This document shows positions 52,586-63,327 of a stretch of DNA of 64,000 nucleotides, piece by piece. The translations under genes were made by a program, and so were the position numbers. The notes under the pieces were generated by a model. It searched no databases, was not told the DNA's origin, and worked only from the letters and a program-made list of their open reading frames with translations. Source of the stretch: Capsulimonadaceae bacterium (lineage in GTDB: Bacteria; Armatimonadota; Armatimonadia; Armatimonadales; Capsulimonadaceae); NCBI GenBank assembly GCA_965215505.1, contig OZ244065.1:5888001-5952000 (forward strand). Direction: 5' to 3'. Within the stretch, counting starts at the first letter, position 1; each line of letters begins with the position of its first letter.

Positions 52586-55500
52586 CTATTGCAGCGGGTC
52601 GAACAGCGGCACGATGACGGTGCGCGGCTTGCCGATGGTGGACTGGACGAGCAGTGTGTGACTCTGCTTTCCGGCCGAAGGCAACAGCAGCTTTCGCGCG
52701 GCGGTCAGGCCCAAGCCCGCCGTTTTGTGGCCGTCAATCTCCAGCACTTCGTCGAACGTGTTGAGGGCGGCGCGGACAACGGGGTCGCGCGCCTGCACCT
52801 CGGCGAGTATGACGTGACCGTGGCCCTGCGGGTCCTTCGTTTCCATCAACGTCAGGCCCGTCGTCTTGGTGACAAAGGGGGCGCGGGTGGCCGAGGTGGG
52901 TGCGAAGAAGACGCGGGAGTGCGGGTAGTCGAAGGTGACGACGAACCGGGACAGCAGGGACACGCCGAGCGACCCGGCGTTGATGAGGGACGCGCCGCCC
53001 TTGGGGTCGAGGGAAAAATCGGTGGGCACGCCGCGCAGGGTGACGCCCGCGACTCGGAGGGACCCGGTGCGCGTGACGCGGGAGCGCGAGACGCCGCCGA
53101 TGCCGCCGCCGGTCGTCAGGAGGCCGTGCGGGTACTTCTTGTCCAAGCCATATTGGGCGACGAAGGGGCTGTAGAGCCGCAGGGCGGCTTCATCGCCGGT
53201 GTCAATGAGGAACCTCTGGGGCGGCAGGGCGTCGAACTGGGCGACGACGGAGGGAACGTCATTGTCCAGTTCGAGAGGAAGGGCGACGCCGTCCGAGGCA
53301 GTCGGGTGGAAGGCGTCGGGCCGCAGGAAGGTCAGCTTCTTGCGCGCGAAGTCCAGGCGGACGACGAAATGGGAGAGCAGGTCGTAGCCGACGAAGCCGG
53401 AGATCGGGCGGGTGAAGTAGGAGTTCAGGGTGTCCGGCAGGTCAATCGCGATCGCCGTCACATCGGTGAGCTGGACCGCGCCCGGCACCTCCACGCGGCT
53501 GACGAGGACCGGGTGCAGGTCGGTCGAGCCGCCGTAGCCGCGCGCCTCCAGGAAGCCGCTGCTTTTCAGCCCCAGACGAGTCGCCGTCTGCTGGGAGAGG
53601 GCGATGCCGCTGGCCCCGCTGTCCAGGAAGACGCGGCTGGGCTGCCCGTTGAGCCGCAGGTCGAGTCCGATCTCGCCGTCGTCGGTGTCGAAGGGGACCG
53701 TCGCGGATGTCTGGCCGGGCCTAATGAAGCGGAACTTGTCGCCGCCGGTCGGCGGCGCGAACAGGTCCGGCGGCAGCGTGATGTTGTTCTGGAGCCGGGT
53801 GACTTTCCCGACGATGTCGTAGCGTGCGGTGCCGTTCGTCGTCGTCATGCTGAAGGGAAAGCGCGCCCCGTCCACGGCCCGGTAGTCGCCGTAGCCGGTC
53901 GTCACCAGGATGTTGTCGTCGAGGTGCTGCTCCCGGACGATCAGGAACGTGTGCGGGTCGAAGAAGAGCGTGCTGGGCTTGCCGCCGTCGGGCAGGGCGT
54001 CCACGACCCAGTCGCCCGTTTCGGGGTCCGGCTGGGGGCGCAGGGTCAGCCGGCCGGGGATGCGGCCGGGCAGGACATAGGAATTGGTGTCGAAGAAGAG
54101 CTGGACGCGCAGGTCCTTCAGCTCTTCGCCCGCCAGCGGGCGGACGTTGCCGTTGGTGTCGCGCTGCCAGGCGCTCTTGCCGTCGTAGCCCTGGGTGATA
54201 TCCAGAATCCCGAGCTTGTCCTCCTCGTACTCCCGGTCGGGTGCGGCGTAGATGGTCGTGATCGTCCCCTGGATGCCGCCCGTCGAGACGCTGGAAACGA
54301 CCTTGGTGTTCTTGAGGGCCATGATGACGTCCGCGCCGCCTAGGGCGGTCAGGTGCTTCTGCATCAGCATCGCCAGCGTCATCGGCGGGTCTGTCGGCAC
54401 GGGCGGGGTCATCACGTCCGCCACCAGGGAGAAGTGTGCGCCCCCCGCCCGCGTTCGCAGGGCGCTCGGCAAGGCGGGCGGCACGAGCGGCGCGGGGGCG
54501 GGGGGCGGGGGCGGGCCGGCCGTGAGCTGCATCCGGCTGTGCGCGTAGTCGAACGTCACCTGGAAGCGGTTCAGTACCTGGTTGCCGATCCCGCCGGCGT
54601 TCGTGGAGACGCGGGCGATCCCCGGCCCGGTCAGTGTCGCCACGTCCAGGCCGCTGAACTTCAGGGTCCCGACGCCCATCGTGTGCCCCGGCGTGATCGT
54701 CTCTTGGACCACCCCGCCCACCCCACTGCCGGAGAGAATCCGGGCGCGCGGGTCGTTCGGGCGCGGCAGCAGGCCGTTCGCCTGGGCGTAGTCTCCGTAC
54801 AGGTGGACGCCGCCCGCGTCGCCCGTATCAACCAGGAACCGGGCGGGCGGGTGGCCGTCCACGGAGGCGAGGATCGTCGGCACCCGCCCCTCCAGCTTGA
54901 GCGGGACCGTGACGCCCGCCCCGTCGGGGACGCGCGGCGCGGCGGGGTCGGTCAGGGTGACGGTCTTCTGGGCATAGTCGATCCGCGTGACGAAGCGGGA
55001 AAGCAGCTCGTAGCCGATGCCGCCGTCCACGCGGCCCTGCGCGCTGAGGCGCTTGCCGACATTCGGGTCCTTGATGACGTGCAGGAGCTGGCCGGACAGG
55101 CGGACCGCGCCGCCGAGTTCGAGCGTCGCCTGCGTCGCGATCCCGGTGTCCGAGGAGCCGCCGTACCCGAGGGTGGGCAGGTTGCCCTGCGTGTTCAGCC
55201 CCGCCTCCTGGGCGGCCTGGGCGGTGATGAACGCCCCGCCCGCCCCGCTGTCCAGCAGGAAGCGGAGGGGGTGGCCATTGACCGAGACGAAGACGATGAC
55301 CTCGTTCTCGTCGGTCACGAAAGGGAACGCGGCCTGGGTGGTGGCACCGGGCGTCAGGAACTGCCAGTCTCGCGCCGGCCTCGGCAGCACGAACAGCGAA
55401 GCGACGAGCGTCGCCCGCGTCGCCTGGGTCAGCGCGGCATCAATGGTCAGCGGCAGCCCCGCCGGCTGGATCTGGAGGTGGCTGGGCGTCTGCAACCCGA

Positions 55501-56110
55501 ACAGCGGCTTGTAGGTCAGGATGCTGATCGTCGTGCTGATCCCGCCCTTCCGCACGACCGACTTGCGGATGAGGTACGTCTTCGGGTCCAAATAGATCGT
55601 CTGCTTGGTCCCGCCCTTCGGCAAGACGTCCAGCACATAACACCCCGTCTCGACGTCGCGCCCCGGCCGGAGCGTGATAGTGCCACTGCCGCCTTTGGAG
55701 GTGTGCTTGAGTGGGTCCACGCTTTCGAGCGAGAAGCCGTTGTCGGCCTTGTTCTCGGCCAGCTCCTCGCCGCCCAGGATGCGGACGTTGCCGTTGCCGT
55801 CCTGCTCCCAGGTCGTCTTGCCGTCGCTGCCGGACGTGTTGGAGATCGGCCCCAGCCGGACCTCCGTGCGGCTGCGGTGCTTTGACGCCTCGTAGGTCGT
55901 CATCGTGCCGCTCAGGCCGCCCGCGCTCATCGTGTAGACAGTTTCCTGCATCCCCGTGTCCGGGAAAGCGGTCGGCGAGCCGGTGGCCCGCTGGTGCCGC
56001 GCCAGCACCTCGTTGAGTGTCAGCGCGGCGGGCGGCAGGGCGGCGGCGGGGAGGAGCAGGCAGAGGAGGGACGCGCACAGGAGGGTGCGCTGGAAAAGGG
56101 TGTAGTTCAC
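52586..56110 (-). CDS. Secreted, internally duplicated retropepsin-like aspartyl protease with PDZ-like tail
   Basis: Four catalytic-type motifs (LLDSGA, LVDTGD, FLDSGA, LIDTGD) in two repeated modules; signal peptide. Confidence 0.85.
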   Translation of the reverse strand: MNYTLFQRTLLCASLLCLLLPAAALPPAALTLNEVLARHQRATGSPTAFPDTGMQETVYTMSAGGLSGTMTTYEASKHRSRTEVRLGPISNTSGSDGKTTWEQDGNGNVRILGGEELAENKADNGFSLESVDPLKHTSKGGSGTITLRPGRDVETGCYVLDVLPKGGTKQTIYLDPKTYLIRKSVVRKGGISTTISILTYKPLFGLQTPSHLQIQPAGLPLTIDAALTQATRATLVASLFVLPRPARDWQFLTPGATTQAAFPFVTDENEVIVFVSVNGHPLRFLLDSGAGGAFITAQAAQEAGLNTQGNLPTLGYGGSSDTGIATQATLELGGAVRLSGQLLHVIKDPNVGKRLSAQGRVDGGIGYELLSRFVTRIDYAQKTVTLTDPAAPRVPDGAGVTVPLKLEGRVPTILASVDGHPPARFLVDTGDAGGVHLYGDYAQANGLLPRPNDPRARILSGSGVGGVVQETITPGHTMGVGTLKFSGLDVATLTGPGIARVSTNAGGIGNQVLNRFQVTFDYAHSRMQLTAGPPPPPAPAPLVPPALPSALRTRAGGAHFSLVADVMTPPVPTDPPMTLAMLMQKHLTALGGADVIMALKNTKVVSSVSTGGIQGTITTIYAAPDREYEEDKLGILDITQGYDGKSAWQRDTNGNVRPLAGEELKDLRVQLFFDTNSYVLPGRIPGRLTLRPQPDPETGDWVVDALPDGGKPSTLFFDPHTFLIVREQHLDDNILVTTGYGDYRAVDGARFPFSMTTTNGTARYDIVGKVTRLQNNITLPPDLFAPPTGGDKFRFIRPGQTSATVPFDTDDGEIGLDLRLNGQPSRVFLDSGASGIALSQQTATRLGLKSSGFLEARGYGGSTDLHPVLVSRVEVPGAVQLTDVTAIAIDLPDTLNSYFTRPISGFVGYDLLSHFVVRLDFARKKLTFLRPDAFHPTASDGVALPLELDNDVPSVVAQFDALPPQRFLIDTGDEAALRLYSPFVAQYGLDKKYPHGLLTTGGGIGGVSRSRVTRTGSLRVAGVTLRGVPTDFSLDPKGGASLINAGSLGVSLLSRFVVTFDYPHSRVFFAPTSATRAPFVTKTTGLTLMETKDPQGHGHVILAEVQARDPVVRAALNTFDEVLEIDGHKTAGLGLTAARKLLLPSAGKQSHTLLVQSTIGKPRTVIVPLFDPLQ

Positions 56111-56152
56111 CCCGTTAGTTTACCGCATTCCGCGCCGATTTTTGGTCAGCCC

Positions 56153-56182
56153 TTGACAATCCCCGAAACCGTGTGCTATTAT
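56153..56182 (+). promoter_or_regulatory. Sigma70 promoter of the RNA-repair operon
   Basis: TTGACA (56153)-N18-TATTAT (56177), with extended -10 TG. Confidence 0.7.
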
Positions 56183-56195
56183 CTCGCCCGGACCC

Positions 56196-56417
56196 ATGAC
56201 TTCACGAAACCATAACCTGCTCGCGGCGACCCCCGGCATCCAGACACCCTCGTTCTGGTCGCCCCTCGCCGCGTCACGCCTGGCCGACGGTTTCGGTACG
56301 GGCGCGGCGGGCTGTTTCGCGCCCTCCGCCGCCTATCAGCCCGGCCAAGCCATAACCCCAGATTATCCCGCGCCGCCGGTTGCGCCTGCCTCATGTCACC
56401 AGGAGAGACATCCTTAG
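56196..56417 (+). CDS. Putative leader peptide (73 aa)
   Basis: ATG a few nt after the predicted TSS; rich in codons unusual for this GC-rich DNA (ATA, TAT x2, AGA, CGA, TCA); ends 35 nt before a terminator. Confidence 0.4.
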   Translation: MTSRNHNLLAATPGIQTPSFWSPLAASRLADGFGTGAAGCFAPSAAYQPGQAITPDYPAPPVAPASCHQERHP

Positions 56418-56452
56418 TTTTTCCTCCCCCAACGACATTCAGCAGAGCAATC

Positions 56453-56486
56453 GGCCCCCGGCGCAAAGCCAGGGGCCTTTTTCTTT
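56453..56486 (+). terminator. Intrinsic terminator in the operon leader (putative attenuator)
   Basis: GGCCCC-C-GGC-GCAAA-GCC-A-GGGGCC followed by TTTTTCTTT. Confidence 0.7.
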
Positions 56487-56531
56487 GCCTCTTCGCGTCA
56501 CGGCGAAAGCCACAAAAGCAAGACAGAACAT

Positions 56532-56616
56532 CGGTTGGAGGCAGATACGGTTTGCTGCTCTGGTCTGTAAAACCAGTTCCCGTTGTGGAGTGTGGGTTCG
56601 AATCCCACCCAACCGA
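56532..56616 (+). tRNA. Atypical tRNA-Tyr(GUA) or tRNA-like RNA
   Basis: Acceptor CGGTTGG/CCAACCG, D-stem GCAG/CTGC, anticodon arm CTGGT-CTGTAAA-ACCAG, long variable arm, T-arm GTGGG-TTCGAAT-CCCAC, A73; no encoded CCA. Confidence 0.85.
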
Positions 56617-56649
56617 CTTGACCGACCATTCCGAAGGGAGGCGACGCGA

Positions 56650-57756
56650 ATGAGCGAACTGGAAGTACAGCGATTTTTACGCGGCGGCGGGACGCTCGCA
56701 GATCTGACGGCCACCTACGGCATCAAGGCGAAAGCCGATGTCGATCTCGGCGTCGTCATGCTGAACTACAACCAGATCGCCTCGCCGATGGCCGAAATGA
56801 TCTGCCAGGAGTGCCGCGCCCTGCTGCTCGAAATGGGCACCTGGGACGTGGTTTCGCGGAGCTTCTTCAAGTTCTTCAATCTGGGGGAGCCGAACGCCCA
56901 CGAGGTTGATTGGAAGACGGCGCGGGTGCAGGAAAAGCTGGACGGCAGCCTGGTCTGCCTCTACTTCCACCGAGGGCAGTGGCGGGTCGCGACGAAGGGA
57001 ACGCCGGACGCCTCCGGGCCGGTGAACAGCCACCCGATCACCTTCGCGGACCTGGTCAAGCAGACGCTGGCCGAGATGGGAAGCTCGTTCGAGGGCCTGA
57101 CGGCACATCTCGACCCGGCGGTCTTCTACTCCTTCGAGCTGACCGCGCCTGAGAACCGCATCATCGTCCCCTATGAAGACCGCCGCCTGACCTGGCTGGC
57201 GGCGTGGGATGCGCGGACCTTGGAAGAGCTGGACATTGAGGCGCTGCCCGACCTGCCCACCCCGCGCGTCCGGGAGTACCCGCTGCGGACTCTGGACGAG
57301 GTGATGACGGCGGTGGGGGCCATCGCGCCGTTCGCCGCCGAGGGCTTCATCGTGCGGGACGCGGCCCACCGGCGCGTCAAGATCAAGAGCGCGTCCTACC
57401 TGATGGTGGACCGCATCCTGAGTGCCCTCAGCACGCCCCGCCGCAAGGTGGAAGCGGTGCTGTCCGCGCAGTTCGACGACATGGTGCCGCAGCTCCCGCC
57501 CCAAGTGCGGGACGAGATGCTGTCGCTCCAGGCACATCTGGTGGCGTTCCGCCGGGAGGTGGCGGAGACGTTCGAGGCGCTTGCCGGGATCGAGGACCGG
57601 CGCGGGTTCGCGGCGGAGGCCTTGCGCCACCCGTTCTCGCCGATGCTGTTCTGGCTGCGGGACGGCAACGACATGGATGAGTGCTTCAGGCGGCTCCACC
57701 CGGACCGCCTGGTGGAATGGCTGGCGGTCGCGCCCGCCGGGGCGGAGGAGGAATAG
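56650..57756 (+). CDS. T4 Rnl1-like ATP-dependent RNA ligase
   Basis: ECRALLL, SFFKFFNLGE, motif I EKLDGSL, FELT, EGFIVRD, RVKIKS; RBS GGAGG before ATG 56650. Confidence 0.85.
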   Translation: MSELEVQRFLRGGGTLADLTATYGIKAKADVDLGVVMLNYNQIASPMAEMICQECRALLLEMGTWDVVSRSFFKFFNLGEPNAHEVDWKTARVQEKLDGSLVCLYFHRGQWRVATKGTPDASGPVNSHPITFADLVKQTLAEMGSSFEGLTAHLDPAVFYSFELTAPENRIIVPYEDRRLTWLAAWDARTLEELDIEALPDLPTPRVREYPLRTLDEVMTAVGAIAPFAAEGFIVRDAAHRRVKIKSASYLMVDRILSALSTPRRKVEAVLSAQFDDMVPQLPPQVRDEMLSLQAHLVAFRREVAETFEALAGIEDRRGFAAEALRHPFSPMLFWLRDGNDMDECFRRLHPDRLVEWLAVAPAGAEEE

Positions 57757-57759
57757 GAA

Positions 57760-58770
57760 ATGTCTACGCTTATCGTGGAGGTCTGCAAAATCGAAAAAGT
57801 GCTGGCGCATGACAACGCGGACGCGCTGGATCTGGCTCAAATCAAGGGCTGGCAGTGCGTCATCCCGAAGGGGAAGTACGCGCCGGGCGACCTGGTGACC
57901 TACATCCCCATTGATGCGGTCATCCCGGCCGAGCATTCGGACCGCTGGGGCATCACCAAGTACCTGTCCAACGGGCGGGTCCGGTGCGCGCGCCTGCGCG
58001 GCGAGCCGAGCTTCGGCGTCATCGTGGACCGCGACAATAAAGAATGGCCGGAGGGTAGGGACATCCAGGACTTCTACGGCATCACCAAGTACGTCCCGCC
58101 GGTCAAGATCAGCGCGGGCGACGCCGCCCCGTCCCACCCGCTGTTCGTCGAGTACACGGACGTCGAGAACCTGCGGAACTTCCCCGCCGTCTTCACGGAA
58201 GGCGAGGAGGTGTCGGTGTCGGAGAAGATTCATGGGACATCATGCCGGTTGGGGCTGGTCGAGGGCGAGTGGATGGCCGGCTCCATGTCGGTGCGCCGAC
58301 GCCGGCCCGAGGAGCTGTCGGGGAGCATCTACTGGCAGCCGATGGCCCTGCCGGATGTCGAGGCCCTGCTGAGTCACCTGGGCGCCTCGCACCGGCAGGT
58401 GATCCTGTACGGCGAGGTCTTCGGCAGCAAGGTCCAGAGCCTGGCCTATGGTCAGACCGGGGCGACCGGCTTCCGCGCCTTCGACCTACTGGCCGACGGC
58501 AAGTACCTGGACGCAGACGACTTCGCGGCCTTGTGCGCGCGGTTCGAGGTACTCGCCGTCCCCGTCCTGTACCGGGGGCCGTACAGCCTGGAGACAGTCA
58601 AGGCGCTGTCCGAGGGCGCGACGACCTTGGGCGCGGACCACATCCGCGAGGGCGTCGTCGTCCGCCCGGTGCGGGAGCGCAATGACCCGAAGGTGGGCCG
58701 GGTCTGCCTGAAATACATCGGCGACCCGTACCTGTTCGCCAAGAACGTCACGGACAGCCACGACGTTTGA
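57760..58770 (+). CDS. DRB0094/Rnl5-family ATP-dependent RNA ligase
   Basis: N-terminal OB module (H.NAD.L.LA.I.GWQCV...GDLV.YIP.D), motif I EKIHGT, YGEVFG, FRAFDL, REGVVV, LKYI. Confidence 0.88.
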   Translation: MSTLIVEVCKIEKVLAHDNADALDLAQIKGWQCVIPKGKYAPGDLVTYIPIDAVIPAEHSDRWGITKYLSNGRVRCARLRGEPSFGVIVDRDNKEWPEGRDIQDFYGITKYVPPVKISAGDAAPSHPLFVEYTDVENLRNFPAVFTEGEEVSVSEKIHGTSCRLGLVEGEWMAGSMSVRRRRPEELSGSIYWQPMALPDVEALLSHLGASHRQVILYGEVFGSKVQSLAYGQTGATGFRAFDLLADGKYLDADDFAALCARFEVLAVPVLYRGPYSLETVKALSEGATTLGADHIREGVVVRPVRERNDPKVGRVCLKYIGDPYLFAKNVTDSHDV

Positions 58771-58791
58771 CATTTCGAGAAAGGGAAAAAC

Positions 58792-60227
58792 ATGGAAAAG
58801 GAAAACATCAAGATCTTCGGAGACCACGAGGAGTCCACGTTGGCCCAGATCACGCGCTCGGCCTCCCCCGAGTCGGTCCGAGGCGCCGTCCTGTGCGCGG
58901 ACGGCCACAAGGGCTACGCCGTGCCCATCGGGGGCGTGATCGCCTACGAGGACAAGATCAGCCCGTCCGGAATAGGGTTCGATATCGCCTGCGGCAACAA
59001 AGCCGTGCGCCTGGACGTTCCCGCCTCGCAGGTGCGGGGCAAGATCAAGAAGATCATGGATGACGTCTGGAGCCACCTGGAATTTGGCATCGGTCGGACG
59101 AACGACACGCATGTGGACCACGAGCTGTTCGACGACGAGGCATGGAAGCTGTCGCCGATGAAGTCGCTAAAGCAGATGGCCCGCAACCAGCTTGGGACAA
59201 TCGGCAGCGGTGTCAGCCGCCTCGCATTGTAAGATGCGATGAGAAACCCGTCCAAATCGGGAAACGCCTGTGAGGGTAATTCCGAGGGAAGTGCGCTGGC
59301 GCGAGCCAACACCCCGTAGAGAGCAGAGGGACTTGGGCAGCCTGGGAACAGGCTGAAGGTGTGCTCCGAACTGCATGGAAAACGAACATGCAGAGCCAGG
59401 CGGAAACGACCTGGATGGTTTTGCTTTTTCGCGGCAGGAACCGCATAAAAAGCAAAACAGATAACAGACTGAACCACTATGTGGACATCTTCGCCGATGA
59501 GCAGGACCGGACCTGGATCGGCGCGCACTTCGGATCGCGCGGGCTGGGGCACAAGACGGCGACCTTCTTCCTGGAGGCGGGCGGGGCGAAGGACGGCATG
59601 GACGTGGACCCTCTGGTCCTCGACGTGCGCTCGTCGCTCGGCGGCGACTACCTCGCCTGCATGGCCCTGGCCGGGCGCTACGCCTACGCGGGGCGCGACT
59701 GGGTCTGCGCCGAGGTGGCGCGGCTGCTGGGGGCGAACATCCTGGAGGAAGTACACAACCACCACAACTTCGCCTGGAAGGAGACGCACGGCGGGCGGGA
59801 CCTGTGGGTGGTCCGCAAGGGGGCGACGCCGGCCTTCCCCGGCCAGAAGGGATTCGTTGGCGGCTCGATGGGGGACCAGTCGGTCATCCTGGAGGGCCTG
59901 GCTTCGGACGAGGCGACGGACGCGCTGCATTCGACGGTGCATGGTGCGGGCCGCGTGATGAGCCGGACGCAGGCGCGCGGCAAGGTCAACCGCAAGACGG
60001 GCCAGGTGATCTCGCCGGGCGTGGTCTCGCGCGCGATGATGCAGGAGTGGCTGCGCGAGAAGAACGTCGAGCTGCGCGGCGCGGGCACGGACGAGTCGCC
60101 GCATTGTTACAAACGGCTTCCGGACGTGCTGGCGCACCACGCCGGGTCCATCCGCGTCCTGCACACGCTGACGCCGCTCGGCGTGGCGATGGCAGGCGAG
60201 GACGTGGCAGACCCGTTTCGGGACTAG
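58792..60227 (+). CDS. rtcB: RtcB RNA ligase, spliced: exon 1 58792-59211, exon 2 59472-60227 (391 aa)
   Basis: Exon 1 has DGHKGY.VPIGG, DIACG, QLGTIGSG; exon 2 has NHY, HFGSRG, HNHHN, RKGATPA, GSMG, HGAGR, DESP..YK. Joining them restores GTIGSGNHY in frame. Confidence 0.93.
59212..59471 (+). ncRNA. Group I self-splicing intron (260 nt, no internal ORF) in rtcB
   Basis: 5' exon ends in U forming a U-G wobble in P1 (GCGGU-GUCA-GCCGC); terminal G 59471; P3 CCCGUCC/GGAC(UU)GGG; P4 UCGGGA/UUCCGA; P7 G(A)GAGCA 59319-25 / UGCUCC 59362-67; P8 CAGCCUG-GGAA-CAGGCUG; GNRA loops on P2, P5, P6; three 3' hairpins. Confidence 0.9.
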
Positions 60228-60231
60228 GCTC

Positions 60232-60261
60232 ACACCCGGCCCTTCCGGGCCGGGTGTTTTT
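60232..60261 (+). terminator. Intrinsic terminator after rtcB
   Basis: ACACCCGGCCC-TTCC-GGGCCGGGTGT followed by TTTT. Confidence 0.75.
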
Positions 60262-60263
60262 CT

Positions 60264-60336
60264 GCTTCCGTCGCTTAACTGGACAAAGCGCGCCCCTTAT
60301 AAGAGCGTGATCCGGGTTCGAGTCCCGGCGGGAGTA
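60264..60336 (+). tRNA. tRNA-Ile(UAU), rare anticodon
   Basis: Acceptor GCTTCCG/CGGGAGT, D-stem GCTT/AAGC with GG in loop, anticodon arm CGCCC-CTTATAA-GAGCG (one C-A mismatch), T-arm CCGGG-TTCGAGT-CCCGG, A73; no encoded CCA. Confidence 0.85.
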
Positions 60337-60338
60337 GC

Positions 60339-61055
60339 CTATGAGCCGTGGGTCTTGGCCGGATGAGCGGGCTTGCGCTTGGCCGTGACGGAGGCGGCGG
60401 GCTTGTGGGGCTTTGTATGGGACACGGGGCTGACGAGGAACGTGACCGGCGTGAGGGCGGTGACGCTGCCGTCCGCCATCAGGGCGCTGGCCCCGAGCGT
60501 GTGGTCGCCGGGGCGGAAGAGGGAGGTGTCTATCGTCACTTTGCCCGACCCGTCCACCGTCAGGGGCGTCGGGGCACCGTCGAGGCTGAGGGTGAACTTC
60601 TGCGCCGTGAGCGCCCCCGTCGGCGTAATCGTGACGCTGGTCTTGCCGACGATGGTTTCCACCTTCATCGTGAAGGGCACGGCGTCGATGAGCTTGACGT
60701 TGTAGCGAGTCATCCGGGTGACCGCCCCGCCCCCCCGGCTCCAGTAGACCGCGATCTGCTCGGTCGGGTCGTGTTCGATGGCCGTGTTCCACACCAGCTT
60801 CCACGAGTCCAGGAAGTCGCCCTTGGTGAACTCGCCGTAGTCGTTGCGGAGGGCGAACGTGGTCATCATCATCTGCTGGCTGATCGTCCCCTGGAACACG
60901 ACGAGGGTGCCCCGCACGACCGTGAGCGGGATGGGGGTTGGGGACGGCTTGACCAGCACGGTCACGGTCGGTGCCTGGGCGGACGCCGCGCCACCGAAGC
61001 CGTAGACCGCAAAAATTACGAGGGCGGGGATGAGAGCCTGAGTGATAGCCTTCAT
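60339..61055 (-). CDS. Hypothetical secreted protein
   Basis: AGAGGAG RBS, signal peptide ending ASA, beta-rich C-terminus. Confidence 0.65.
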   Translation of the reverse strand: MKAITQALIPALVIFAVYGFGGAASAQAPTVTVLVKPSPTPIPLTVVRGTLVVFQGTISQQMMMTTFALRNDYGEFTKGDFLDSWKLVWNTAIEHDPTEQIAVYWSRGGGAVTRMTRYNVKLIDAVPFTMKVETIVGKTSVTITPTGALTAQKFTLSLDGAPTPLTVDGSGKVTIDTSLFRPGDHTLGASALMADGSVTALTPVTFLVSPVSHTKPHKPAASVTAKRKPAHPAKTHGS

Positions 61056-61170
61056 CGGTAGTAGTTCTCCTCTGAAAGAGAGCTTGTTTCCATTGCTCAT
61101 CCCTCATTGTATCACACTCCGCGGGCTTTGAGAAGGGGGAGCGGCCCGAATGCCGGAAACGGCACCGGTT

Positions 61171-63327
61171 TCAGGCCGCCTGGCGGAGCGCCGCCTCGCC
61201 ATTCCCGGTGTCCTCCCTCCCCATGCCCTCGCGCATGAGGCTGACGAACAGGGGGGCGAGTGAGGGATCGAACTGCGTCCCCGCCCCGCGCGCGACTTCG
61301 CCCAGGGCCGTCTCCCAAGACAGCCCTTTCCGGTACGGGCGGTCGCTGGTCATGGCGTCGAACGTGTCGGCCAGGGCGAGGATGCGGGCCAGGAGCGGGA
61401 TCTGTTCGCCCGCCAGCCCGTCCGGGTAGCCGCCGCCGTCCCACCGCTCGTGGTGGTGGCGGACGCCCGGCAGGGCGGCGGCGAGTTTGGGGGCTTTGCG
61501 GACGATGACTTCGCCCAGGGCGGGATGCGTCTCCATGACCCGGCGCTCTTCGTCGTCCATCCGGCCCGGCTTCTTGAGGATGGCGTCGGGCACGCCGATC
61601 TTGCCGACATCGTGCAGGGTGCCGGTCATGTGGACCAGGGCGACCTCGTCGGCGGTCAGGCCCGCCCGGCCTGCCAGGGCGACGGCGTATTCCGCGACGC
61701 GCTGGGAGTGACCCTGGGTGTAGGGGTCTTTGGCGTCCACGGCGGCGGCCAGCGCCTGGATCGTGGGGAGGCTTTCGTCCTTCAGGAAGCGATGGAGCTG
61801 GTAGGGGTCGGCACCAGCGTCCGCGCCCGGCACGCTGTCGAAGCGGCAGACGCGGTCGCGCCCGAGCTGCTTGGCGCGTGAGACGGCAAGTTCGGCGGCC
61901 AGCACCAGGCCTTCCCCCTCCGCCGTGTGGGTGCCGAACTCGGCGCAGCCGATGCTGAGTGTCAGGCCGTGGTCCAGCCCGGCGACGGCCGCCCGGATCA
62001 TCTCCGCCAGGGCCTCCGCCTGTGCCAGATCGCGCTGCGGCAGCAGGACGGCGAACTCCTCGCCGCCGTACCGGGCCGCGACCGCGACTTGAGGCATGCA
62101 GGCTTGGAGCGTCTCGGCCACGTCACGCACCGCCAGGTCGCCCGCTGCGTGGCCGTGCCGCTGGTTGTACTGCCCGAAGTGGTCCAGGTCCAGCAGGAGT
62201 AGGGACAGGCGCTCGCCGGAGTGCGCGCAGCGCCGAGCCTCCTGGTCGAGCCGCTCCTGGAACCGGCGGTGGTTGTCCAGGCCGGTCAAGGGGTCCGTGT
62301 CTATCAGGGCCAACAGGCGTTCCTGGCTGCCGCGCAGGGACGCCGTCATCTCATTGAACACGGTCTGGAGCAGTCCGATCTCATCGGCCCGGCGGACCTC
62401 GAAACGGGCGGGCCACTCCCCCCGGCGCAGCGTCTCGGCGGCCTCGACGACACCTCCAAGGGGGCGGGTCAGGCCGCGCGCGAGGAACGCACCGCCGGCC
62501 AGGGCCAGCAGCAGCGTCAGGGCGGAGGCGGCGAGGAACGCCAGCAGGCATCGGTGGTAGAGCGCCATCGCCGGCCCATAGGGGCGCAGGGTGACGAACC
62601 CCATGCCGGCCTTGGGGTCGGTGTCGGGGAGCGGCGCGTAGAGGGCAAAGTAGCGGGTGCCGTTCAGCACCACCACCGTGGGCGTGCGGGGAGTCGGCAA
62701 GGTGGGGGGCAGCGGGCAGGAAGCGCCCACGACTTTGCCGTGGTAGAGGAACGCCACATCGGTTCCTAATGAGGCGCGCAGGTGTACGGCCACGGCGGGG
62801 TCAATGGCGCGGTAGGCGGTGAAAGTCCCCCACGGATAGGCGTGGATCTGCACCGGTACGCAGACGGCCAGCACGAGCCTCCCCCCCCGCGCGACGATCC
62901 CCTGCCATTCACGGTTGTCTATTGCGGCGGCGACCCCAGCATCGGCGCTCATGTCCGTCCCCGCGCGTAGCCCCCCCCCGGCGTCGGCCAGGACATGCCC
63001 GTCAAGGTTGGTCACGATGATCTCGTCCACGCCCAACTTCTGCCGGTAGCCGCGCAACTCGTATAGCACGGTCGCCGGATTATTGGTGCTGATCGCCGCC
63101 CGCAAGACCGGCAGATTGGTGATCAGGCGGGACTGGTCGCGCAGGACGGAGGTCCGCTCGCGCATGAGCTGGCCCAGTACGCCGCCGGTCGTGCGGACGT
63201 CCGCCTGCACGGCCCGGCCCACCTCGCGGGACACGAGGACGGTGAAGGCGAGCAGGATGACGGACACCAGGCCGACCGCCGTGCCGGCGACGAGCAGGAG
63301 GATCTTGGCGCGCAGACTCAGTTTCAT
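61171..63327 (-). CDS. Membrane sensor with HAMP, GGDEF and HD-GYP domains (c-di-GMP turnover)
   Basis: Two TM helices, HAMP (DEIG.L...FN.M), TDPLTGL, RYGGEEF, HDVGK, HHERWDGGGYPDGL. Confidence 0.93.
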   Translation of the reverse strand: MKLSLRAKILLLVAGTAVGLVSVILLAFTVLVSREVGRAVQADVRTTGGVLGQLMRERTSVLRDQSRLITNLPVLRAAISTNNPATVLYELRGYRQKLGVDEIIVTNLDGHVLADAGGGLRAGTDMSADAGVAAAIDNREWQGIVARGGRLVLAVCVPVQIHAYPWGTFTAYRAIDPAVAVHLRASLGTDVAFLYHGKVVGASCPLPPTLPTPRTPTVVVLNGTRYFALYAPLPDTDPKAGMGFVTLRPYGPAMALYHRCLLAFLAASALTLLLALAGGAFLARGLTRPLGGVVEAAETLRRGEWPARFEVRRADEIGLLQTVFNEMTASLRGSQERLLALIDTDPLTGLDNHRRFQERLDQEARRCAHSGERLSLLLLDLDHFGQYNQRHGHAAGDLAVRDVAETLQACMPQVAVAARYGGEEFAVLLPQRDLAQAEALAEMIRAAVAGLDHGLTLSIGCAEFGTHTAEGEGLVLAAELAVSRAKQLGRDRVCRFDSVPGADAGADPYQLHRFLKDESLPTIQALAAAVDAKDPYTQGHSQRVAEYAVALAGRAGLTADEVALVHMTGTLHDVGKIGVPDAILKKPGRMDDEERRVMETHPALGEVIVRKAPKLAAALPGVRHHHERWDGGGYPDGLAGEQIPLLARILALADTFDAMTSDRPYRKGLSWETALGEVARGAGTQFDPSLAPLFVSLMREGMGREDTGNGEAALRQAA

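Follow-up and report, generated by a model that had tools for sequence, protein, structure and literature searches.

A candidate leader-peptide attenuator ahead of tRNA and RNA-repair genes in a Capsulimonadaceae bacterium

Here we describe a locus in a 64,000-nt stretch of the genome of a Capsulimonadaceae bacterium (phylum Armatimonadota; GenBank assembly GCA_965215505.1, contig OZ244065.1, positions 5,888,001 to 5,952,000). This whole stretch is called the window, and coordinates are window positions on the + strand unless another contig is named. The locus comprises a leader open reading frame (ORF), an intrinsic terminator and, further downstream, tRNA genes and genes for RNA-repair enzymes. 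An initial annotation of the sequence had flagged it as a candidate translation-sensing attenuator, with codons in the leader that are read by the operon's own tRNAs.

Organization of the locus

The layout was established by direct reading of positions 55800–57200, together with the ORF list, ARAGORN, a promoter scan and Pfam. These data point to a single unit on the + strand, consisting of a promoter, the leader ORF, the terminator, tRNA-Tyr, two RNA ligase genes, an RtcB gene and tRNA-Ile(UAU). The promoter is strong and of the sigma-70 type, with TTGACA and TG-n-TATTAT spaced by 18 nt (56153–56182; 11 of 12 matches), and it is conserved in the relatives G012, G011 and G022. Scanning both strands of 55500–61500 gave three promoter-like sites, versus 0.6 ± 0.6 in shuffled sequences, and the site at 56153 was the only one on the + strand. 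An independent promoter downstream of the terminator, which the initial annotation had named as evidence that would speak against attenuation, was not seen: the scan gave no promoter-like site between the terminator and tRNA-Tyr.

The leader ORF (56196–56417; 222 nt) has 73 codons for a peptide of 73 amino acids and starts with an ATG that lacks a Shine–Dalgarno (SD) element. Within it, a putative sensor zone (56334–56366) contains TAT at 56334–56336, ATA at 56352–56354 and TAT at 56364–56366, all in frame. These are codons read by the tRNA-Tyr(GUA) and tRNA-Ile(UAU) of the operon. Also in frame are CGA (56205), TCA (56202, 56274 and 56391) and AGA (56406), which have no cognate tRNA in the operon and lie outside the zone where codon matching occurs. 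The intrinsic terminator (56453–56486), recognized from sequence, folding and covariation, begins 35 nt past the leader stop codon. Its hairpin, GGCCCC-c-GGC gcaaa GCC-a-GGGGCC (56453–56477), is followed by the U-tract, TTTTTCTTT (56478–86). Promoter, 73-codon ORF, terminator and tRNAs all lie where the initial annotation had placed them, and our reading of the sequence bore out the in-frame TAT, ATA, TAT, CGA, TCA and AGA codons that it had listed.

Beyond the terminator, the first gene is tRNA-Tyr(GUA) (56532–56617; ARAGORN and Rfam). It is followed by a gene for a T4 Rnl1-like RNA ligase (56650–57756; PF09511, E = 3e-15, 57.1 bits), which is preceded by the SD sequence GGGAGG, and by a gene for a second RNA ligase (57760–58770; PF09414, 92.3 bits, with an N-terminal PHA02142 OB domain; E = 5e-26 and 2e-12). 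The RtcB RNA ligase gene (58792–60227) is in two pieces, 58792–59211 and 59472–60227, which match PF01139 at 63.8 and 133.1 bits. All of these ligase hits are above the curated cut-off, and no Pnkp gene was seen within the operon. The last gene, tRNA-Ile(UAU) (60263–60339; ARAGORN and Rfam), stands directly behind a second terminator-like hairpin (60232–60257; terminator scan). This element, an 11-bp G+C-rich hairpin with a short T-run (60232–60263), ends 5 nt before the tRNA and may be a read-through terminator or a 3′ stabilizer left after RNase P cleavage.

The initial annotation had not seen a gene for the regulator RtcR nearby, and this holds well beyond the neighborhood. PF06956 found no match in the whole of this 96%-complete, single-contig genome, and it did match the E. 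coli control. The activator gene that marks rtc operons under RtcR and sigma-54 control was thus not found. A second, uninterrupted RtcB gene lies elsewhere in the genome.

The leader family and its alternative hairpins

Relatives of the leader were sought with a 531-nt query; three genomes from the same genus contained full-length matches, 71–80% identical. Shorter matches gave more distant copies, and a further 18 came from metagenome contigs scanned with an exact pattern; G014 and L190, missed by the search pattern, are absent from alignment A2. A covariance model was then built from 31 distinct leader sequences. It found 40 full-length copies (E up to 1e-5), distributed over 26 of 71 genomes from the order. 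Of 23 genomes from the genus, 20 carry the leader, and two of the three with no copy are only 75% complete. Genomes carrying the family have one to three leader copies each. Outside the order, a phylum-wide search with the model gave only hits of 25–30 bits, and the three full-length hits that were inspected there (L204, L206 and L210) proved to be ordinary gene ends or coding sequence. A pattern made up of the two antiterminator strands described below was too loose when used alone, as it matched at least 120 contig stretches and no terminator was listed behind any of them. In five genomes (G000, which is that of the window, and G012, G011, G022 and G006), the locus adjoins the same gene, which encodes a protein of 1174 amino acids. 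A syntenic neighbor in at least five genomes indicates that the locus is chromosomal, with turnover of its cargo.

The initial annotation had reported no convincing antiterminator; folding of the leader revises this. The minimum free energy (MFE) structure of the whole leader (–128.6 kcal/mol, z = –3.70) contains an antiterminator and not the terminator. In this structure, 56370–56383 pairs with 56447–56464 and occupies the 5′ arm of the terminator, which makes the two hairpins mutually exclusive. The 5′ strand (GCGCC and GCCGGUUGC; 56370–56383) lies inside Ala-Pro-Pro-Val-Ala codons of the leader, and the 3′ strand (GCAAUCGGC cccc GGCGC; 56447–56464) overlaps the terminator arm. At the apex sits a small cap hairpin (56401–56425), variable in sequence, with the stop codon of the leader, TAG (56415–56417), at its loop. 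The long antiterminator hairpin is predicted at about –42 kcal/mol, and the terminator alone at –19.4 kcal/mol. Similar values were obtained across the 31 relatives, with antiterminators at –29 to –48 kcal/mol and terminators at –16 to –25 kcal/mol. In all 31, the antiterminator formed once the 3′ arm of the terminator was withheld from folding.

Both helices were also assessed by covariation. For the terminator, 95.8% of cells were paired, with 25 double-sided changes, and none of 500 shuffles scored as high. For the 9-bp core of the antiterminator, 98.6% of cells were paired over the 31 sequences, with two compensatory pairs; compensatory changes in this core occur in G021 and G015b, and a double change in G008b. 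It is conceivable that the hairpin at 56453–56477 belongs to a constitutive leaky terminator or RNA-processing element, which sets a low basal level of expression or stabilizes a small RNA, the ORF having no regulatory role. A consensus terminator scan did not list this hairpin, and a similar one precedes tRNA-Ile with no obvious leader. Yet such an element leaves unexplained the conserved reading frame, the pairing between the ORF and the terminator arm, and the codon matching, and we consider it improbable.

Neither an anti-antiterminator (1:2-type) hairpin nor a pause hairpin was found in the whole-leader MFE structure or in the 31 folds. An anti-antiterminator is typical of enterobacterial attenuators, and the principle works without one. 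Pairing of a 1:2-like kind was seen only in some leaders of the g4 type. These come from a genus, g4, of the sister family (L048, L050, L051, L052 and L047) and are shorter, at 42–48 codons; they start with MILQNRQLHLSLSCDCQRN, and two of four folds have the 5′ end of the leader base-paired to the antiterminator strand, much as in a classical 1:2 helix.

Across the family, 19 distinct ATG-to-antiterminator distances occur, between 107 and 242 nt, and 18 of them leave a remainder of 2 when divided by 3. Among close relatives, insertions and deletions in the ORF measure 3, 12 and 33 nt, and both the start codon and the stop codon (TAG or TAA) are kept. In 25 of the 31 leaders, the stop codon falls 37 or 40 nt past the start of the core antiterminator. 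Arithmetic on aligned loci places the ATG 12–13 nt downstream of the –10 element in 15 loci, a constant gap that suggests a 5′ untranslated region (UTR) of only about 5–7 nt. (In G012, G015a, G006, G009 and G022, an upstream in-frame ATG overlaps the –10 element, and the alignment-consistent ATG was used instead.) Near-leaderless starts of this kind have precedents: parts of PMC4007540 report leaderless leader peptides in Deinococcus deserti, and parts of 10.1101/834739 report leaderless poly-Cys small-ORF (sORF) attenuators in mycobacteria. We predict that the leader ORF is translated, based on frame conservation, the position of the stop codon, and a codon match that is specific to its frame.

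A different interpretation is that the leader is a structured non-coding element that binds a trans factor, be it a protein, a tRNA or a tRNA fragment, in the manner of a riboswitch or T-box, and that the ORF is incidental. The strong structure of the whole leader would fit this, as would the lack of an SD and the flat distribution of substitutions over codon positions. The most conserved bases of the ORF are, moreover, kept as RNA, being found in another frame in G016b. However, 18 of the 19 leader lengths are in frame, and the codon match is exclusive to the ORF frame. In addition, no Rfam family, T-box included, was found in 56140–56660 at E up to 10, beyond tRNA and chance terminator hits; the best non-tRNA hit on the leader, anti-hemB, scored 18.1 bits (gathering threshold 49.5) and aligned the terminator only. 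We regard this interpretation as very improbable. A RiPP precursor, a small-RNA gene and a T-box had also been entertained and were dropped, given that the genes downstream are tRNAs and RNA-repair enzymes and that the codon match is frame-specific.

Leader codons and the tRNA cargo

To describe what the leaders precede, we took a census of the 45 distinct leader loci that have 3 kb or more of sequence behind them, with protein families fixed by Pfam. Genes for tRNA were present on the same strand within 5 kb in 37 of the 45 loci, in numbers ranging from 1 to 19. An RNA-repair enzyme was encoded within 6 kb in 36 loci (RtcB in 27, PF09414 in 18, Thg1-like in 6, Rnl1-like in 4 and RtcA in 4), and no locus lacked both kinds of gene. 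The window shares its Tyr and Ile(UAU) cargo with G012 and G001. Other loci carry other pairs, namely Lys and Tyr (G015a), Lys and Phe (G006), Cys and Tyr (G003), or Pro and Met (G015b), and larger sets are also found, with 8–15 tRNA species in G023, G014 and G005 and arrays of 8–14 in the sister family. Species known as nuclease targets recur in the cargo across the family, including the tRNAs for Tyr, Lys, Asn, Asp, His, Glu and Gln.

We next asked whether leader codons follow this cargo. In the window's genome (66.5% G+C), TAT and ATA account for 5.8 and 2.1 per 1000 codons. By chance, 72 codons would include at least two TAT with a probability of 0.066 and at least one ATA with a probability of 0.14, or about 0.009 jointly. 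For the family, a leader codon was termed cognate if it could be read by the locus's own tRNAs under standard wobble. The fraction of cognate codons for each anticodon was centred on the mean of the loci and summed where the tRNA was present, and tRNA sets were then permuted. We used one representative per leader cluster (60% peptide identity), from loci with at least 1 kb downstream. The 24 representatives gave 1.142 versus 0 ± 0.187, a value not reached in any of 100,000 permutations. (An earlier version of the test used 20 representatives.) When the g4 sister-family leaders were left out, the value was 0.747 ± 0.152, and again none of 100,000 permutations was as high. Cognate codons were commoner where the tRNA was present in 24 of 26 anticodon classes.

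Because clustering removes kinship only partly, three controls were made. The first was a hold-out set: of 15 loci that the covariance model turned up later, 14 were used (G021b was omitted, as its ORF was not placed). This set gave 0.793 ± 0.172, with 1 in 100,000 permutations as high. The second concerned the reading frame. Over 38 loci, the ORF frame gave a z of 8.15, compared with –0.89 and –0.65 for the shifted frames and –0.01, 1.94 and 0.16 for those of the reverse strand. The third concerned position within the leader. Among 17 representatives, the zone from codon 16 to the antiterminator gave 0.152 versus 0.100 ± 0.011 (0 of 5000 permutations as high), and no match was seen in the first 15 codons (659 of 5000) or after the start of the antiterminator (2753 of 5000). 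The conservation of leader codons, which the initial annotation had proposed to check, can therefore be stated as follows: codons track tRNA genes from locus to locus, and do so only in the ORF frame and only upstream of the antiterminator. All the comparative checks that the initial annotation had called for thus gave a favorable outcome. The proposal of an attenuator with cargo-matched codons gains its support from this comparison of the family, the window's three codons being weak evidence when taken alone.

Individual loci illustrate the trend. The leader of G015b, with Pro and Met cargo, contains Met codons at six internal positions along with numerous Pro codons, and that of G006, with Lys and Phe cargo, has F, F and K just ahead of the conserved motif. 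In G056, PSFEGWYRDDP in the leader precedes tRNAs for Glu, Trp, Pro, Tyr, Phe, Leu, Gly and Asp. In the g4 leaders, 57–80% of codons are read by the 8–14 tRNAs that follow; at these sister-family loci, the start of the first tRNA lies 7 nt past the T-run of the terminator. There are also instances of loss. The tRNA-Ile(UAU) gene of G011 is a 17-nt remnant, and its leader has ATT where relatives have ATA. Similarly, L180 has no tRNA-Tyr in the 592 nt available and no Tyr codon, and its near-twin L179 has both. Codon matching, together with joint loss of codon and tRNA in G011 and L180, points to selection on codon identity.

These data bear on another explanation, in which the leader senses translation stress in general, such that any slowing of ribosomes by antibiotics, ribosome damage or starvation induces the operon and the codon match carries little functional weight. 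A default-on design with no anti-antiterminator would be suited to this, since any upstream stall or failed initiation should induce. The window leader has merely three cognate codons, and 8 of the 45 leaders stand ahead of RtcB, Thg1-like or ligase genes and lack tRNA cargo altogether. But the codon matching is strong and recurs in the hold-out set, and it is specific to one frame and one zone of the leader; codon and tRNA have also been lost together in G011 and L180. We therefore judge a general stress sensor unlikely, albeit the most plausible of the three alternatives considered here.

Several features of the cargo were noted in passing. A second member of the leader family in the window's genome (E = 3e-4) lies outside the window, on the minus strand of contig C1 (~2221641–2219560). 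Its peptide, MTSLTTKRNTKMMPGHR...SGFLKNFILGP, has 14 of 49 codons cognate to its own tRNAs and is followed by tRNA-Lys, Phe, Gly, Met(CAU), Asn and Arg and by an RtcA gene. The operon's tRNA-Tyr is identical to the other tRNA-Tyr of the genome (C1:5305705–5305790) at 48 of 86 positions; the two have identical anticodon loops and differ in their stems. AUA is otherwise served by a CAU tRNA that resembles tRNA-Ile (C1:2257718). At three loci (L225 in G016c, L242 in G070 and L244 in G065), ARAGORN identified tRNAs with A34 (Phe AAA, Val AAC and Thr AGU), a nucleotide that is unusual at this anticodon position in bacteria.

Insertions were also observed in RtcB genes. That of the window is split between GSG and NHY by a 260-nt insert (59212–59471) with an in-frame stop, which is absent from the close relatives G012, G011, L183 and L184. 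The insert is strongly structured (z = –4.63), is preceded by U and ends in G, and contains a hairpin in which the last exon bases pair with intron bases 59217–59221, with a U.G pair at the junction. These boundaries resemble those of group I introns. The insert had no Rfam hit, no phage match and no other copy in the genome. A different insert, of about 1.3 kb near residue 70, occurs in L042 (G006), L045 (G013), L229 (G017) and L179. In G006 and G013 this insert preserves the reading frame (ORFs of 835 and 853 amino acids) and so looks like an intein. In G013, a free-standing NUMOD3/DUF559 endonuclease-like gene lies between the leader and RtcB, and G015a has a related one.

Proposed mechanism and comparison with known systems

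We propose that the locus is a ribosome-mediated (leader-peptide) transcription attenuator that gates a tRNA-damage response operon, and we put the probability of this at roughly 70%. During normal decoding, the leading ribosome would unzip the 5′ strand of the antiterminator hairpin and be positioned at its apex as polymerase transcribes the terminator, which would then form and stop transcription. If tRNA-Tyr or the tRNA-Ile that reads AUA ran short, as might follow from cutting by an anticodon nuclease, the ribosome would stall at TAT or ATA, ahead of the hairpin. The antiterminator would persist, and transcription would continue into the tRNA and repair genes. With the ribosome halted at 56334 or 56352, the hairpin would stay free. 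Newly made tRNAs would relieve the stall, providing negative feedback. As no upstream sequence was found to pair with the 5′ strand of the antiterminator, an untranslated leader should also allow read-through (ON). A conserved, codon-matched attenuator acting as a sensor of specific tRNA loss is well supported by the comparisons above, and through it the cell would probably switch on spare tRNAs and RNA-repair enzymes when those tRNAs fail.

A number of points weigh against this mechanism. Some relate to the structural switch. Five of the nine core pairs of the antiterminator are invariant, and covariation support for this helix is correspondingly thin. A ribosome at the stop codon would cover the apex only, and the outer helix may re-form behind it. 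TAT at 56364 adjoins the antiterminator, so a ribosome stalled there would cover the first bases of the hairpin. Others relate to translation. Besides the missing SD and the probable 5′ UTR of only about 5–7 nt, the three codon positions have similar shares of substitutions (260, 225 and 270 of 1035 each). Selection on the peptide is thus not apparent, and the evidence for coding consists of frame conservation and codon matching alone. G016b carries the antiterminator motif in a different frame, and the leader of G058 (L053) has an in-frame TAA, which may mean that the switch has decayed or that this genome, 68% complete, was misassembled there; the related metagenome leader L196 is intact. 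Finally, some relate to the cargo. The window's own match, 3 of 72 codons, is weak. Its tRNA-Ile lies behind the second terminator-like hairpin, which makes co-transcription of this gene only putative. And 8 of the 45 leader loci gate repair genes in the absence of any tRNA, so tRNA cargo is not obligatory.

A more far-reaching possibility, which we offer tentatively and regard, in all its parts together, as rather less likely true than false, is that the locus is a hypervariable tRNA-damage island. In this scenario, the leader would spell out the tRNAs under attack, codons and cargo would be swapped together, and the operon would supply resistant replacement tRNAs and ligases. The attackers might be anticodon nucleases of phage-defence systems, or colicin-like or contact-dependent toxins. 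The operon's divergent tRNA-Tyr might then be a nuclease-resistant replacement, made along with ligases that mend the cleaved originals. If correct, this would represent a cis-encoded, RtcR-independent means by which bacteria detect the loss of individual tRNAs. The attenuator model itself, should it hold, would provide an RtcR-independent logic for rtcB induction. It would explain in simple terms how the destruction of one tRNA species is sensed by a cell and answered with replacements and ligases, and leaders would constitute a readable record of the tRNAs under attack in each lineage. Natural variation in the family, with 0 to 19 tRNAs per locus and leaders to match, provides ready-made test cases.

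Leader-peptide attenuation is textbook knowledge for amino-acid supply, with trpL, hisL, pheL, ilvL and thrL controlling amino-acid operons and pheM controlling pheST. Like these attenuators, the locus described here has a promoter-proximal ORF with regulatory codons, a terminator and a competing antiterminator, and the position of the ribosome would decide between the two hairpins. Several differences are apparent. The genes controlled are those for tRNAs and RNA-repair enzymes, rather than for biosynthesis or synthetases, and the regulatory codons are mixed and change with the tRNA cargo. No 1:2 helix was found here, so that failure to translate the leader should result in the ON state and not in super-attenuation; the proposed design has two states and is on by default. 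The stop codon lies at the apex of the antiterminator, and the start is near-leaderless and lacks an SD. The general mechanism of transcription attenuation by leader peptides is summarized in parts of PMC1183508 and PMC4007540. Our search of the literature, which did not cover subscription journals or supplements, found no paper in which leader-peptide attenuation acts on tRNA genes, on RNA-repair operons or on rtcB together with tRNAs.

In E. coli and Salmonella, rtcBA is activated by RtcR, a sigma-54 activator that responds to damage of the translation apparatus. The system proposed here would likewise induce RtcB (and RtcA in relatives) upon such damage. Unlike RtcR, which is a protein sensor acting in trans, the sensor would be a leader peptide acting in cis, and tRNA genes form part of the regulated unit. 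Spare tRNAs under stress control are described in parts of PMC8421152 and PMC10272220 for the trn operon (L-array) of Anabaena PCC 7120, which is normally silent and is induced by translational stress. According to the same portions of these papers, the operon is held off by the ribbon-helix-helix repressor TrcR. In our case, by contrast, a codon-matched leader peptide and a terminator switch would exert control, and the tRNAs are accompanied by RNA-repair enzymes.

Parallels with phage biology can also be drawn. During T4 infection, Rnl1 and Pnkp repair tRNA-Lys cleaved by PrrC. Like phage countermeasures, the locus combines an Rnl1-like ligase with further ligases and with replacement tRNAs for known nuclease targets. 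It differs in being chromosomal and syntenic, in its proposed control by an attenuator, and in that no Pnkp was seen in the operon. Phage-encoded tRNAs are presented as a countermeasure to tRNA-targeting defences in parts of PMC12409363.

There is also a likeness to leader peptides that sense translation stress. One of them, toiL, upstream of topAI, is described in parts of PMC12121999. As in toiL–topAI, PA5471.1 and the mycobacterial sORFs, stalling in a short upstream ORF would relieve premature termination, and a (near-)leaderless start has precedent among them. PA5471.1, ahead of armZ/prfH, is likewise a leader peptide that senses translation stress. Whereas these leaders respond to drugs or to a single amino acid, the set of codons in the family described here mirrors its own variable tRNA cargo.

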